DNA of 56,079 nt from an uncultured Salinivenus sp. (GTDB lineage Bacteria; Bacteroidota; Rhodothermia; Rhodothermales; Salinibacteraceae). Shown piece by piece: positions 29,911 to 37,045 of this stretch (position 1 is the stretch's first letter; each line of letters begins with the position of its first letter). Made by a program: the position numbers and the translations under genes. Below the pieces are notes generated by a model. It was not told the origin of the DNA. It made no database searches and saw only the letters and a list, made by a program, of their open reading frames with translations. The stretch is from contig CAYULG010000001.1 of assembly GCA_964445365.1 (NCBI GenBank), positions 1 through 56,079 of the forward strand, read 5' to 3'.

Positions 29911-31452
29911 ATGTCCGAGCCGGAGACCGCCTCCCCCGACCGCCCGATTGAAGACTTCACCCGCATCGAAGCCCTTGAGGACCACGTCGACGAGACCGTG
30001 ACCCTGAAGGGCTGGCTCCACAATAAACGGGGGTCCGGCGGTATCAAATTCCTCATCCTTCGCGACGGCTCCGGCTTTGTGCAGTGCGTGGTCGCGCAGG
30101 ATGGGGTCGACGAGGACAGCTGGGCGGCGGCCGACGATGTGCGGCAGGAGGCCGCGATAGAAGTTGTCGGCTCCGTCAGCGAAGACGATCGAGCGCCGGG
30201 CGGCTACGAGCTTCAGGTCGACTCCGTGGCCCCGATCGGCGAATCCGGCGATTACCCCGTGACGCCCAAAGAGCACGGCATCGACTTCCTGATGAACCAC
30301 CGCCACCTCTGGCTCCGCAGCGAGAGCCAGTGGGCCGTCATGCGTATTCGCAACCGCACGATCCGGGCAATCCACGAGTTCTTCCAGGACCGGGGCTTTT
30401 TGCAGACCGATGCGCCCATTCTTACGGGGAACGCGGTGGAGGGGACCTCAACGCTTTTTGAACTCGATTACTTCGAGGATGAGCAGGCCTACCTCACCCA
30501 GAGCGGCCAACTGCACGGGGAGGCCATGGCCATGGCGTACGGCAAGGTTTACACCTTTGGCCCCACGTTTCGCGCGGAGAAGTCCGACACGCGACGCCAC
30601 CTCACGGAGTTCTGGATGATCGAGCCGGAGATGGCCTTCTACGACCTGGAGATGAACATGCAACTGGCCGAAGACTTTCTGAGCCACATCGTGCAGACGG
30701 TGCTAGATGACTGTGAGGATGAGTTGGCGGCGCTTGATCGCGACACGAGCGCCCTCAACCGGGTTGAGACGCCTTTTCCACGCATTAGCTACGACGAGGC
30801 CGTCGAGATCCTTCGCAGCGACGAGACGGTCGACATGATCGATGAACAAATGGACGCCCTGCGCGAGGAGAAGGCGGAGCTTCAGGAGGAGAAGGAGGAA
30901 AACCAACGGCGTCGCGGACAGGCCAAGAAGCATGTGAAGCGCGAGATCGACGCCCGCGACATTGAAATCAACAAGCGGATCGATGAGATCGAAGAGTCGC
31001 TGCGCAACCTGCCGGACTGGAAAGAATCCGCCCAGACCTTCGAGTGGGGTACCGACTTTGGCGGGAGCGACGAGACGGTGCTCACCTGGCACTTTGACCG
31101 TCCGGTGATGGTGCACCGCTTCCCCGCGAAGATCAAGGCCTTCTACATGAAGCGCGACCCCGACGATGACCGACTGGCGATGGGTGTGGACGTCCTTGCC
31201 CCTGAGGGCTACGGTGAGATCATCGGCGGGGGCGAGCGAGCCACCGACATCGACTATCTGAAGGAACAGATCGACGCGCACGACCTGCCGGAAGACGTTT
31301 TCGACTGGTACCTCGATCTCCGCAAATTTGGCGCAGTCCCCCACAGCGGATTTGGGCTTGGGCTGGAGCGGACGATTTCCTGGCTCACTGGACGGGAGCA
31401 CGTACGGGAAACGATCCCCTTTCCTCGGACGATTGGGCGGTTGCACCCGTAA
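29911..31452 (+). CDS. asnS: Asparagine--tRNA ligase
   Basis: OB fold LRDGSG, YLTQSGQL, FRAEKSDTRRHLTEFWMIEPE, GEIIGG, PHSGFGLGLER. Confidence 0.95.
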   Translation: MSEPETASPDRPIEDFTRIEALEDHVDETVTLKGWLHNKRGSGGIKFLILRDGSGFVQCVVAQDGVDEDSWAAADDVRQEAAIEVVGSVSEDDRAPGGYELQVDSVAPIGESGDYPVTPKEHGIDFLMNHRHLWLRSESQWAVMRIRNRTIRAIHEFFQDRGFLQTDAPILTGNAVEGTSTLFELDYFEDEQAYLTQSGQLHGEAMAMAYGKVYTFGPTFRAEKSDTRRHLTEFWMIEPEMAFYDLEMNMQLAEDFLSHIVQTVLDDCEDELAALDRDTSALNRVETPFPRISYDEAVEILRSDETVDMIDEQMDALREEKAELQEEKEENQRRRGQAKKHVKREIDARDIEINKRIDEIEESLRNLPDWKESAQTFEWGTDFGGSDETVLTWHFDRPVMVHRFPAKIKAFYMKRDPDDDRLAMGVDVLAPEGYGEIIGGGERATDIDYLKEQIDAHDLPEDVFDWYLDLRKFGAVPHSGFGLGLERTISWLTGREHVRETIPFPRTIGRLHP

Positions 31453-33445: not shown

Positions 33446-33607
33446 CGAGGGAAACTGTTTCGTCGTCAATACCAAAACCGATAGGCGGTGGCTCGCAGGT
33501 GAGGACCGGTGGCGGTTGGTAGGGACCGTTTTCCGAAGGTTGTGTTGCACAAAGCCTCGGCGTTGATCGTGACGCCGTGAATCCCCCACCAATTTGGCCA
33601 CTCCAGG

Positions 33608-33636
33608 TTGAGAGGAACAATTCGTACGAATACGTT
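33608..33636 (+). promoter_or_regulatory. Putative sigma70-type promoter for the uORF-secD-secF unit
   Basis: TTGAGA, 17 nt spacer, TACGTT, ending 42 nt upstream of ATG 33679. Confidence 0.45.
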
Positions 33637-33678
33637 ATTGCTGATGTCGTCGCTCACTGTTCGCGAACCCAGGGTCCA

Positions 33679-33933
33679 ATGGGCACTTTGCCGTTCATAT
33701 TTCAGGGCACGGGGCTTTTTGCTCTCTTGATGGGGGTGCTTCCGGCCGTTCGGGAGATGGCCCAGGAAACCCTGTCGCGAGCTCGCGAGCACTACGACGC
33801 CGGTCGTGGTGGGGAAGAGCTGATTCCTTCTGTAACTAGACTCGACCCGGCCGTTTTGTCCGCGTTCGTTCCCTCGGTTCCGACGGGGCGCCTTACCCGT
33901 CTCCTCGTCGATGCACGTCCGATGGGTCCGTAG
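33679..33933 (+). CDS. 84-aa leader ORF upstream of secD; candidate ribosome-arrest (secretion monitor) peptide
   Basis: Hydrophobic N-terminus (LPFIFQGTGLFALLMGVLPAV) and C-terminal ARPMGP-stop; same strand as secD, 177 nt upstream. Confidence 0.6.
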   Translation: MGTLPFIFQGTGLFALLMGVLPAVREMAQETLSRAREHYDAGRGGEELIPSVTRLDPAVLSAFVPSVPTGRLTRLLVDARPMGP

Positions 33934-34110
33934 CACCCGAAGGGCGATCCACCTCTTTCTGCTCTTCGCGAGGGACCGATTCGTTCTGTGCTTGATCGCG
34001 TGATGATCCCCCCATGTGCCCGACTTGCGCGTGGGCGACTCTGTGCGTGAGTTGGACCTGCGTCCCTCAGACGAGTATCCGATGATTGTTGAATTGAGTT
34101 ACCGACTGTA

Positions 34111-36066
34111 ATGCAGGGGAACGGATTTAAGCTTGGCCTTACGATATTCTTTGTTGGACTGTGCGGGTACTATCTCTTCCCATCGGTCCAGAACATGTAC
34201 ATCTCTTACCAGATGGACCAGATGGAGGCGTCCGAGCGCCAGGAGTACGTGGAGGAGAGTCGCCAGCGCATCGAAACCATTGAACAAAACTCGCTGAACC
34301 TCGGCCTCGATCTTCAGGGGGGAATGCACGCGACGATGGAACTGAGGGTGGAGGCACTGCTCGAACAACTTTCCACGAGGAAAGACGAAAACTTCCAGCA
34401 AATCCTCAGTGCGGCTGTCCAGCGAGCCGAAGCCGAAGACTTGACTGTCGTCGAGGCGTTTGTCCAGGAGTTTGAGTCTCGCAATCCGGATGGGCGACTT
34501 TCCCGCTACTTTCGCAATGAGTCGGAGGGCATCACGCGTCGGTCGTCCAACGACGAAGTGGAGACCTATTTGTCCAACCAAGTCGGGGACGCGGTCAGCA
34601 CGGCCATGGACATTGTCCGGAACCGCGTCAATCAATACGGTGTCACTGAGCCCTCCATCCAGAAGCAAGGCGCCCAGCGCCTTTCCGTTGAGCTTCCCGG
34701 CGTTGAAGACCAAAATCGAATGCGAGATTTGCTCGAAAGCGCCTCGCAACTCACCTTTCATCTGATGGCCGATCCGGACCGGGTACGCTCTGCCGTTCAA
34801 GCGATGATTGATTACTACGAGCCGACCGCTGAAGACTCGGCCCGATTGGCGGGGGGTGGGGCTGCCGACACCACGGACACGGGGACGATGGGGGAGGCCG
34901 ACACCACTGAAGCAGAGGCTACAGACTTGACGGCTGCCGGGCAGGGGCAAGACGACCCGTCTCAGCAGGGAACGTCATTGTCTGAATCCGACGAGGGAGA
35001 GCAGGCCGGGCCACAGAATCCCCTGCTCTCCGTCATGCAGCCCCTTCCTCGCCAGGGAGCGGCGACTGTCGGGTACGCCTCTGGGCGGGACACGTCTCGT
35101 GTGAATGAACTACTGAACGAGTCGGAGGTCACGGAGATGATTCCTCCGGGCGTTCAGTTTGTATGGACCGCCAACTCGTTACCTGGGAGCCAGGACACAT
35201 ACGAGTTGCTCGCACTTCGGGCGGACGCGGAGCTCACCGGAGAAGTCGTCACGAACGCCTCGGTTCAATTTTCCCGAAACACCAACGAGCCGGAAGTCGG
35301 AATGTCTATGAACTCGGAGGGCGCCCGGATCTGGGGGCGGCTGACGAAGGCGAACGTCGGAGAGCGAGTGGCCGTCGTGCTGGATGGAAAGGTGTATTCG
35401 GCCCCGAACATCGAAGAGCCGATCCTAGGGGGGCGGACGAGCATTAGCGGACTTGAAAGCCGACAGGAGGCACAAGACATTGTGACAATCCTCCGGTCCG
35501 GCTCCATGCGGGCCCCGATGGACATCATTCAAGAACGGACCGTGGGACCGAGTCTCGGAGCAGAATCGATTCGAGCGGGCTTCCTCTCCGTGACGGTTGG
35601 CTTCTTGCTCGTGGTGCTGTTTATGGTCCTGTATTACCGTACCGCCGGTCTCGTGGCCGATGTTGCGTTGCTGCTGAACTTGATTCTCATTCTCGGCATT
35701 CTTGCCGGCTTCAACGCAACGCTCACGCTGCCGGGGATTGCCGGTATTGTTTTGACAGTCGGTATGGCTGTGGATGCGAACGTGCTCATCTACGACCGGG
35801 TGCGTGAGGAGCAGGCAACCGGTAAAACCTTGAAAGCCGCGATCGCGGCGGGGTACGAAAACTCCCTTAGCGCGATCCTGGACGCCAACATCACGACGTT
35901 TTTCGTGGGCGTGATCCTGTATTCCTTTGGTGTCGGGCCCATACAGGGTTTTGCCGTTACTCTCATGGCTGGGATCTTGTCCTCACTCTTTACAGCCATC
36001 ATCGTGACCCGGCTCATCTTCGACTATATGGTCGAAGAGAAGAAGATGGAGGTCAGCTACGGATAG
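34111..36066 (+). CDS. secD: Protein translocase subunit SecD
   Basis: LGLDLQGG, RVNQYGVTEP, VELPG, VGPSLG, TLTLPGIAG, GMAVDANVLI, DANITT. Confidence 0.97.
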   Translation: MQGNGFKLGLTIFFVGLCGYYLFPSVQNMYISYQMDQMEASERQEYVEESRQRIETIEQNSLNLGLDLQGGMHATMELRVEALLEQLSTRKDENFQQILSAAVQRAEAEDLTVVEAFVQEFESRNPDGRLSRYFRNESEGITRRSSNDEVETYLSNQVGDAVSTAMDIVRNRVNQYGVTEPSIQKQGAQRLSVELPGVEDQNRMRDLLESASQLTFHLMADPDRVRSAVQAMIDYYEPTAEDSARLAGGGAADTTDTGTMGEADTTEAEATDLTAAGQGQDDPSQQGTSLSESDEGEQAGPQNPLLSVMQPLPRQGAATVGYASGRDTSRVNELLNESEVTEMIPPGVQFVWTANSLPGSQDTYELLALRADAELTGEVVTNASVQFSRNTNEPEVGMSMNSEGARIWGRLTKANVGERVAVVLDGKVYSAPNIEEPILGGRTSISGLESRQEAQDIVTILRSGSMRAPMDIIQERTVGPSLGAESIRAGFLSVTVGFLLVVLFMVLYYRTAGLVADVALLLNLILILGILAGFNATLTLPGIAGIVLTVGMAVDANVLIYDRVREEQATGKTLKAAIAAGYENSLSAILDANITTFFVGVILYSFGVGPIQGFAVTLMAGILSSLFTAIIVTRLIFDYMVEEKKMEVSYG

Positions 36067-36133: not shown

Positions 36134-37045
36134 ATGCGTCTGTTTGAGAACGCCGATTACACCCTGATTCCGAACCGGAAAATGGGCTATATCTTTTCCG
36201 GAACCCTTCTCGTGCTCAGCATTCTGTCCCTGGCCTTCAGGGGGCTCTCTCTCGGGATTGACTTTCGGGGGGGGATGGAGTTCGTGGTTGGAGGAATCCA
36301 GGATCTCGACGTAGTGGAGGTGCGGTCGGCCCTTGCCGAGCCGCTCGGGAGTAACCCGGAAGTGAAAACCTTCGAGGAAGATCTCTTGATTCGGGCGCCG
36401 GCTACGCAGGACATGAACACAACCGAGACGCAAGAGCTGATTCTCTCCACAATCGAAAAAGAGTTTGAGGAAGCGAATCCGGAGATTATAAAGACGAGCA
36501 TCGTCGGGCCTCGGTTTGCGGAGGATTTAAAGCAAGGGGCCTACTACGCGGTCCTTGGGGCATTACTGGTCATATTCCTGTACATTTTGGTTCGGTTTGA
36601 ATGGAAGTACAGTGTGGGGGCTGTGGCCGCTTTGGTGCACGACATCACGATCACACTCGGACTGTTTTCGATCCTCGCGGGGGTCGTGCCCTTTTCCTTG
36701 CAGATCGATCAGGGCATCATTGCTGCTTTCCTGACCATAGTCGGATACTCGCTCAATGACACCGTGGTCGTGTTTGACCGCGTGCGTGAGTACGTCAATC
36801 TTTTCAAGACGGAGACCTTCCCGGTCATCGTCAACAAGTCCATCAATGCTACCCTCAGCCGTACCGTCGTAACCTCGCTTACGACGTTTATCGTCGTTGC
36901 GATTCTGTTTGTGTTCGGGGGAGAAGTGCTGCGCGGCTTCTCCTTTGCACTCATCATCGGCGTCGTCATTGGGACGTACTCCTCCATCTTCGTCGCGTCG
37001 CCGACGATCGTCGAGCTGGATCGACGGCTGGGACAAACCGCGTAG
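36134..37045 (+). CDS. secF: Protein translocase subunit SecF
   Basis: GIDFRGG, VGP, HD, GYSLNDTVVVFDRVRE, TLSRT, GTYSSIFVA. Confidence 0.97.
   Translation: MRLFENADYTLIPNRKMGYIFSGTLLVLSILSLAFRGLSLGIDFRGGMEFVVGGIQDLDVVEVRSALAEPLGSNPEVKTFEEDLLIRAPATQDMNTTETQELILSTIEKEFEEANPEIIKTSIVGPRFAEDLKQGAYYAVLGALLVIFLYILVRFEWKYSVGAVAALVHDITITLGLFSILAGVVPFSLQIDQGIIAAFLTIVGYSLNDTVVVFDRVREYVNLFKTETFPVIVNKSINATLSRTVVTSLTTFIVVAILFVFGGEVLRGFSFALIIGVVIGTYSSIFVASPTIVELDRRLGQTA

Follow-up and report, generated by a model that had tools for sequence, protein, structure and literature searches.

An 84-aa Pro-stop upstream ORF before secDF in Salinibacter, a likely termination-arrest peptide whose long relatives carry a SecD-like domain

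The window analysed here (the whole stretch of 56,079 nucleotides from an uncultured Salinivenus sp.) carries, directly before secD and secF, an 84-aa upstream ORF (uORF) that is probably an arrest peptide of the Pro-stop type, which would stall its own ribosome at the stop codon and sense export capacity on behalf of secDF. By analogy with the tested uDF_NAP-stop peptide, its C-terminal residues would hinder the action of the release factor, here RF1, and its hydrophobic N-terminal segment, about 60 residues away, would engage the Sec machinery as in monitors of the SecM/VemP type. Working export would free the stall by pulling, again as in those monitors; when export is poor, the stall would last and secDF would rise. 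The weakest step of this scheme is the coupling, in which the stalled ribosome would cover a pyrimidine-rich tract after the stop codon and prevent transcription termination in the spacer. New here are the selection on UAG, the domain of putative SecD origin that the long relatives contain, and the minimal form in Salinibacter.

The upstream ORF and its locus

The ORF (33679–33933, forward strand) starts with ATG and ends RPMGP-TAG, in agreement with the initial annotation, which had described an 84-aa ORF on the secD strand ending RLLVDARPMGP-stop. The secD ATG lies at 34111, which leaves 177 nt between the two, and secF follows downstream of secD (Table 1). An in-frame GTG at 33577 would make a 118-aa ORF, but an in-frame ATG is aligned with that at 33679 in 28/28 loci of the genus. 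Within its own genome, the 84-aa ORF is the sole match to the family profile at E < 0.03, and its end ranks first among 22,776 genome ORF ends (score 20.0; next 11.4) when scored with a 12-column matrix built from 88 ORF ends outside the genus. Neither the short nor the long forms of the uORF match a Pfam or NCBIfam family at cut-off, and an Rfam scan gave no match to E ≤ 1.

Table 1. Coordinates of the features at the secDF locus (window positions)
Feature	Position	Strand	Evidence
Conserved DNA box of the GTGAA..CCC..CAATT type, probably regulatory	33577..33595	+	Alignment of 28 genus loci
Putative promoter-like region, TTGAGA-17-TACGTT overlapping AACAAT-N12-GTTATT	33608..33639	+	Element conservation
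Upstream ORF of 84 aa in the short form of Salinibacter, likely a termination-arrest peptide	33679..33933	+	Conservation, selection, ORF-end matrix, family profile
Hydrophobic uncharged N-terminal segment, residues 1–24, likely membrane or Sec-targeting signal	33679..33750	+	Hydropathy; low-confidence model
Conserved last 15 codons and TAG, likely arrest element ending P-M-G-P-stop	33886..33933	+	dN/dS 0.07–0.08; invariant residues
177-nt spacer before secD	33934..34110	+	Pyrimidine-rich start; TGAAyTGA box near −20
secD, likely regulated gene	34111..36066	+	Pfam PF21760, PF22599, PF02355, PF07549
SecD residues 79–171, helical insertion in the periplasmic part, with homology to the long-form uORFs' central domain	34345..34623	+	hhalign 90–97%
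secF	36134..37045	+	Pfam PF02355, PF07549

Conservation and selection within the genus

Enough upstream DNA was available at 28 loci from 27 genomes of the genus (L024 was left out as too short), and all 28 carry an ORF of 84, 85 or 87 aa at the aligned in-frame ATG, 147–212 nt before secD. The overall dN/dS, calculated on nine 84-aa and fifteen 87-aa members, is 0.27–0.28, indicating purifying selection; it takes values of 0.07–0.08 in the last 15 codons, 0.19–0.27 in the middle (linker) and 0.51–0.61 in codons 2–25, the least constrained part. The ORF ends R-P-[ML]-[GT]-P-TAG, with R-11, L-9, R-5, P-4, P-1 and the stop TAG invariant at the 28 loci, and 15 database relatives all share the ARPMGP end. 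The S. ruber form is recorded as a hypothetical protein (CBH24960.1), with WP_208427143.1 in the same cluster.

The 84-aa ORF is a real gene and likely a functional one. The initial annotation had taken it for a uORF of the secDF-monitor type, and as a uORF it is borne out by conservation, selection and the fixed C-terminus before secDF; the comparison of relatives upstream of secD that had been proposed there came out in its favour, with a conserved ORF, a drifting middle and a fixed C-terminus (dN/dS 0.07–0.08), but N-terminal hydrophobicity was only partly kept. It is extremely improbable that the ORF merely reflects a conserved RNA or DNA element acting in cis and encodes no functional peptide. 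Some conserved DNA boxes do lie nearby, but change in the ORF (dN/dS 0.27) is biased to third positions, the frame is open in 28/28 loci against stops in the other frames in 18–23 of the 28, and neither an Rfam match nor a consensus RNA structure in the spacer was found (2 pairs and no covariation among 23 loci).

Two side observations concern the genus as a whole. The short forms (L002–L045) are mostly strongly basic, with net charges of +3 to +15, and the window's own is neutral; the proteome is otherwise acidic, as gene proxies selected for acidity have a median charge of −0.05 per residue. One genome (G009) has two secD copies (L006 and L041), each preceded by its own 85-aa Pro-TAG uORF, which reflects either a duplicated operon or contamination (estimated at 6%).

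A Pro-stop family in Rhodothermia

The survey of DNA upstream of secD covered 123 Rhodothermia genomes, among them that of the window, with 124 loci in total; these comprised all genomes of a first search, 60 of the 148 genomes with a match in a second one, and class-level loci, after eight duplicate loci had been dropped. Of these 124 loci, 116 have a Pro-ending uORF before secD, nearly always as [GA]-P-stop, and they represent 27 of 28 families, a count that is partly circular (113 members were assigned by a motif rule and 3 by hand) and overstated by the non-independence of related genomes. As a control, the [GA]P end was seen in just 4 of the 157 other same-strand ORFs that terminate within those 500 nt. 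An independent search with a whole-protein profile found the [GA]P end in 149 of the best 150 matches (365 clusters in all). The ends of the 116 members are PLGP (41), PMGP (18), PRAP (16), INAP (10), IGAP (7), PQGP (5), PRGP (4) and rarer forms; NAP ends occur in 11 of the 116, and RAP or RGP ends in 21 of the 96 Rhodothermales members.

Outside the genus, the ORFs are 125–225 aa long, mostly about 180 aa. Longibacter and Salisaeta, sister genera in the same family, have the long form, and we infer on this ground that the short form is derived from it. Short and long forms align only over their last 11–13 residues, so that their common descent is argued from position, motif and one shared DNA element (at L049). 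Proteins of family f29, which end in NAP or GAP, show homology with the long forms of Rhodothermales (hhalign 95%, E 2.7e-8). When the long-form profile was used to look for still longer proteins, 7,993 candidates yielded none, a result of little weight, and all matches in an Atlas search were under 0.9.

The eight loci without the uORF are all four of f25, two in f20, G142 (70% complete) and L024 (short upstream DNA); the absences in f20 and f25 look like independent losses. At the two f20 loci (L055 and L060), secD adjoins a gene like that of the window's 29911–31452 protein, which we take by eye to be an asparaginyl-tRNA synthetase.

The family had been thought possibly specific to Rhodothermota. 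This did not hold for the Pro-stop class, since the order of G272, another in the Bacteroidota and probably Cytophagales by inferred name, has a Pro-ending uORF at 25 of 30 loci (L213–L242). The NAP-stop peptides of that order have no profile similarity to the Rhodothermia family beyond the tail pattern. Four of its five loci without a Pro-stop uORF come from small genomes of 1.0–1.6 Mb, which suggests loss in reduced lineages. Among 40 loci of other Bacteroidota lineages, several with a mis-set SecD start, one convincing Pro-stop uORF was found (that of G272).

The stop codon itself is strongly biased. The 116 members use TAG in 109 cases, TGA in 5 and TAA in 2, against a background of TAG in 621 of 1,680 gene proxies of the window's genome and in 41 of the 104 Pro-ending ones. 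The secD genes at the same loci (n = 52) end in TAA (24), TAG (18) or TGA (10), and in the AT-rich f29 the uORF stop is TAG at 16/17 loci while that of secD is TAA at 16/17. Because the paired secD stops differ in this way from the uORF TAG, selection appears to act on the stop codon itself, with the reservation that related genomes are non-independent. UAG is read by RF1 only. Such selection would be expected if the stop codon occupies the A site while the peptide acts, and it points to a release-factor-specific arrest. The Pro-ending uORFs of the G272 order (n = 25) are divided among TAA (12), TAG (11) and TGA (2). The few non-TAG members in Rhodothermia (L090, L095 and L099 of f21; L101 and L127; L114 and L116 of f27) end in RAP or GAP followed by TGA or TAA, so which stop is preferred may depend on the variant of the tail.

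Comparison with known arrest peptides

The uDF_NAP-stop class was defined in three Bacteroidota orders (Fujiwara et al. 2024, PMC10987492). The tested peptide, from Echinicola, ends P-N-A-P-stop according to its primer, with Asn at −3; in vitro, peptidyl-tRNA amounted to 30–50% (E. coli) and over 50% (B. subtilis), and the toeprint placed the stop codon of the stalled ribosome in the A site; the stall required the stop codon and residues −3 and −1 (PMC10987492). The 84-aa ORF is likewise a small ORF (<300 aa) directly upstream of secDF on the same strand, with a conserved terminal Pro beside the stop (28/28 genus loci, besides the profile matches above) and a host in the Bacteroidota, where the genome table of PMC10987492 places Salinibacter. 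By hydropathy its N-terminal segment is a putative signal or membrane segment, and the roughly 60-residue linker that the initial annotation had pointed out (residues 24 to 84) is well over the 30 aa asked of the spacer in this class. The ends P-N-A-P-stop and P-M-G-P-stop share a P-x-[AG]-P frame.

However, the 84-aa ORF is much shorter, and it ends M-G-P rather than N-A-P or the RAP/RGP of the published script, whose filter would miss it together with 75 of the 96 Rhodothermales members. A further point against the preferred explanation is that the Asn at −3, which matters in the tested peptide, is Met in the 84-aa ORF and variable across the class (L/M in the genus; L/M/R/Q/N/G overall). 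Because the terminal Pro, the preceding G/A and the stop codon are what is kept, the family is assigned to the Pro-stop termination-arrest class. The 84-aa ORF fits as a variant within this Bacteroidota class that would work like uDF_NAP-stop while falling outside its literal motif. Read in this way, the family would extend the N-A-P motif of the Pro-stop class to P-x-[GA]-P and form a bridge to RAP|P.

The novelty first claimed for the ORF is thus reduced: the class is already published, and the script of PMC10987492 files Rhodothermales uORFs ending in RAP or RGP under uDF_NAP-stop, with S. ruber among the genomes screened, but the M-G-P end stands outside the script's filter. The main text of that paper names neither Rhodothermales nor Salinibacter, and its Supplementary Data 3 or supplementary figures may hold PMGP/PLGP members. 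No mention of the UAG preference or of the SecD-like domain of the long forms was found in its accessible text. A literature search, mostly of papers outside subscription, likewise found in print neither the UAG preference nor the SecD-domain homology nor the loss of the domain in Salinibacter with the weak, amphipathic N-terminus of the S. ruber clade; it found no arrest peptide for Rhodothermales, NAP-stop only in PMC10987492, and nothing relevant on Salinibacter secD, on secD duplication as an origin of arrest peptides or on the periplasmic insertion of Bacteroidota SecDF. In their accessible parts, PMC7897499 has S. ruber in its genome list and no PMGP entry in its supplement, PMC12992588 mentions neither NAP-stop nor Rhodothermales, and the LudP preprint (10.64898/2026.10.26.761930) does not mention NAP-stop.

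VemP, ApdA, ApdP and uDF_RQH share the gene position and the proposed feedback on secDF. However, ApdA, ApdP and RQH arrest elongation while the A site holds Pro or Gly, and they have an essential Arg; neither applies to the 84-aa ORF, and R-P-M-G-P-stop does not match the RQH motif, (R/Q/H)-(A/G/D)-(P/G/S)-(P/G), in which the A site is occupied by a sense codon. The tested RQH member relies on a hairpin that covers its Shine–Dalgarno site (PMC10987492), whereas the Rhodothermia loci have no Shine–Dalgarno site and no conserved hairpin. That the downstream gene is induced was shown in the accessible text of that paper for the RQH member, not for NAP-stop.

The initial annotation had preferred a SecM/RAGP register with a shifted Arg. 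SecM resembles the 84-aa ORF in combining an export signal with a C-terminal stall that ends in GP; it differs in lying before secA, in arresting elongation and in having Arg at −2 from the P-site Gly, and the 84-aa ORF lies before secD and is without RAGP. At curated cut-offs, the 84-aa ORF has no Pfam or NCBIfam match. A SecM/RAPP-type reading based on the Arg and the GP end would explain why R-5 is invariant in the genus and why RAP or RGP ends recur in Rhodothermales, and the RAP-stop and RGP-stop members would stand in the RAP|P register with the stop replacing the last Pro. However, R-5, present at 28/28 genus loci, occurs at just 9 of 88 outside the genus, which undercuts the shifted-Arg register, and the motif always abuts a stop codon whose identity is selected. 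Moreover, RAPP-type arrest requires Arg two residues before the P-site residue (PMC10951233), a place that would be taken here by Pro. Such a reading is therefore very unlikely.

In TnaC, a termination stall controls the downstream gene (PMC11890864), as is proposed here for the Pro-stop peptide. TnaC differs in being induced by tryptophan and in blocking RF2, whereas in the Rhodothermia family UAG, an RF1 codon, is the favoured stop and the N-terminus is of the export type.

The SecD-like domain of the long forms and the origin of the family

A sub-threshold NCBIfam SecDF match on the Salisaeta uORF protein (E 0.015) gave the lead to a direct comparison with SecD. The central domain of the long forms matches residues ~79–171 of Rhodothermia SecD (hhalign probability 90–92%) and the corresponding insertions, taken from 39 of the 40 other SecD(F) proteins of Bacteroidota (94–95%), and an independent profile of 142 representatives matches the SecD insertion at 95–97% (E 1e-10 to 2e-8). 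Decoys (reversed, and 20 block-shuffled) scored 10–16.5, versus 48 for the real match between long form and SecD. In the opposite direction, an HMM of the SecD insertion reached at least 10 bits in 26 of 85 long uORFs, in 0/85 reversed ones and in 0/28 short forms, and with an HMM of the long uORFs the window's SecD was the best among 32,164 six-frame segments of the genome (E 1.8e-6). A second match to the latter HMM, on C284, looks by eye like a fragment of a tyrosine recombinase and was taken as chance.

The insertion, for which no Pfam family was seen, aligns with the uORF domain over about 75–80 columns; in SecD(F) it is part of the translocon subunit itself, and it is absent from the 84–87-aa Salinibacter ORFs. 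AlphaFold predicts a confident helical bundle for residues 41–120 of the long form (pLDDT 94–98), followed by a poorly ordered tail. Fold searches with this model gave no Foldseek match at E ≤ 0.001 and a best VIA Z of 6.3, and are not informative; the homology rests on sequence profiles. In f29 the domain gives a weak direct match (E 0.005–0.01), and it was not found in the peptides of the G272 order or in the window's 84-aa ORF. The short form compared with SecD TM1 or with the insertion gave no significant match (E 0.14–0.9).

The insertion spans the phylum and the domain-bearing uORF is seen only in Rhodothermia, which makes SecD the probable donor. A partial duplication of secD, involving its 5′ part, likely gave rise to the family; later shortening would have followed in Salinibacter, which we infer to have lost the SecD-like domain. 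According to the discussion of PMC10987492, Sec/YidC monitors are believed to have emerged repeatedly, from a source that is not known, and long forms with a recognisable SecD domain would offer a concrete origin for such a monitor, namely duplication of the regulated gene. The complete scenario would be a secDF monitor built from a 5′ duplicate of secD (membrane segment plus insertion), with a Pro-UAG tail blocking RF1, acting by transcription attenuation and cut to 84–87 aa in Salinibacter. This full combination is rather unlikely to hold in every part; if true, it would provide a secretion monitor of traceable origin and a new mode of coupling for a lineage without Shine–Dalgarno sites.

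The ORF could also encode a small accessory subunit of SecDF in the membrane or periplasm, co-transcribed with secDF and YajC-like in position, with the tail as a binding or structural motif. The long forms combine a signal-like N-terminus with a helical bundle (pLDDT 94–98) homologous to the periplasmic part of SecD, as such a subunit might, and the linker is under purifying selection (dN/dS 0.19–0.27). However, an accessory subunit leaves unexplained both the selection on the stop codon and the terminal Pro shared with tested arrest peptides, and both Salinibacter and the G272 order do without the folded domain, so that the accessory role is quite unlikely as the explanation of the ORF. The accessory and arrest roles need not exclude each other.

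The N-terminal segment and the sensing of export

Residues 1–24 of the 84-aa ORF contain no charged residue and no basic n-region, and reach a best 12-residue Kyte–Doolittle mean (KD12) of 2.49; a structural model gives an N-terminal helix at low confidence (pTM 0.28). The hydrophobic N-terminus described in the initial annotation is thus present in the window, but only partly kept in the genus. In the window's clade KD12 is at least 2 in 8/9 and 4/4 members, whereas in the 87-aa clade, which includes S. ruber, it is so in 5/15, with a median of 1.71 and charges within the 12-residue window. The N-terminus of that clade is basic and amphipathic, with a hydrophobic moment of about 1.0 and Arg pairs inside, and it is doubtful whether the clade has an export signal. 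Judged by eye against consensus motifs, neither a Tat nor a lipoprotein signal was accepted for the 87-aa clade. The long forms outside the genus have a basic hydrophobic N-terminus, partly by construction, as their starts were picked beside a hydrophobic window.

These features bear on whether the Pro-stop peptide, while stalling, no longer senses Sec pulling in Salinibacter, so that a fixed pause, or a sensor of RF1 supply, membrane binding or salt, would set secDF output. The basic, amphipathic N-terminus of the 87-aa clade, the lack of a basic n-region in the window's peptide, the rapid change of the N-terminus relative to the rest of the ORF and the UAG that is invariant in the genus would all suit such a loss. 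Against it, the window's clade keeps an uncharged hydrophobic run, the length is fixed at 84–87 aa, so that the distance from signal to stall is kept, and the position before secDF is constant. On balance the loss of Sec sensing is unlikely, and the preferred reading remains a peptide whose stall would be relieved by export. The long and short forms provide a natural deletion series, about 180 aa versus 85 aa and a strong versus a weak signal, in cultured organisms, among them Rhodothermus marinus and Salinibacter ruber, so that termination arrest and its coupling can be tested directly in a lineage without Shine–Dalgarno sites.

The spacer and coupling to secDF

The first 20 nt after the uORF stop have a C+U content of 0.70 versus 0.51 in the background, and C+U is above 0.5 at 62 of 67 other Rhodothermales loci; the window's own tract reaches only the 76th percentile of the background. 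A hairpin followed by a U-tract, by criteria that are loose and against a background taken from the window's genome alone, is present at 49/96 loci compared with 40/240 in the background, an excess of about three times, and at 2/20 loci in other orders. A terminator scan at the window locus found none. The genome encodes rho (a full rho on C307); a second rho-like gene (G000:C30:3754–4857) scored 425 bits, under the cut-off.

An SD-like 4-mer precedes secD at 6 of 116 loci. In place of a Shine–Dalgarno site, a TGAAyTGA-type box conserved in the genus lies about 20 nt before the secD ATG (34089–34097 in the window). The spacer ranges from 36 to 380 nt across the class, the value of 36 probably coming from a mis-set start. 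When a ribosome footprint was masked at the 28 genus loci, predicted accessibility of the secD start rose by at least 0.05 in 8, fell in 3 (the window included) and was unchanged in 17, giving no support to a simple start-site switch at secD.

TnaC has a long spacer and acts by Rho-dependent attenuation. A TnaC-like transcription attenuation in the spacer is favoured for the Pro-stop uORF, though with slightly less than even confidence, because of the pyrimidine-rich post-stop tract, the excess of hairpins with U-tracts, the presence of rho, the few SD-like sites and the lack of a consistent masking effect. A translation-start switch at secD is possible but on the unlikely side, and other routes of coupling are slightly less likely still.

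DNA elements upstream of the ORF

The promoter TTGAGA-17-TACGTT named in the initial annotation is present as hexamers (TTGAGA at 33608, TACGTT at 33631) at the 17-nt distance, but a sigma-70 scan lists no site in this region, and TTGAG is kept at just 15/28 genus loci. The overlapping element AACA[AT]T-N12/13-G[TG]TATT is better conserved (26/28 genus loci), with one match in the whole genome; among the long-form loci it occurs at 1/85, the Longibacter locus L049. Further upstream, the box at 33577–33595 lies about 100–120 nt before the uORF ATG in the genus alignment, whatever the upstream gene, and is possibly the site of a regulator. It stands at two spacings, about 15 nt apart, from the promoter-like element.
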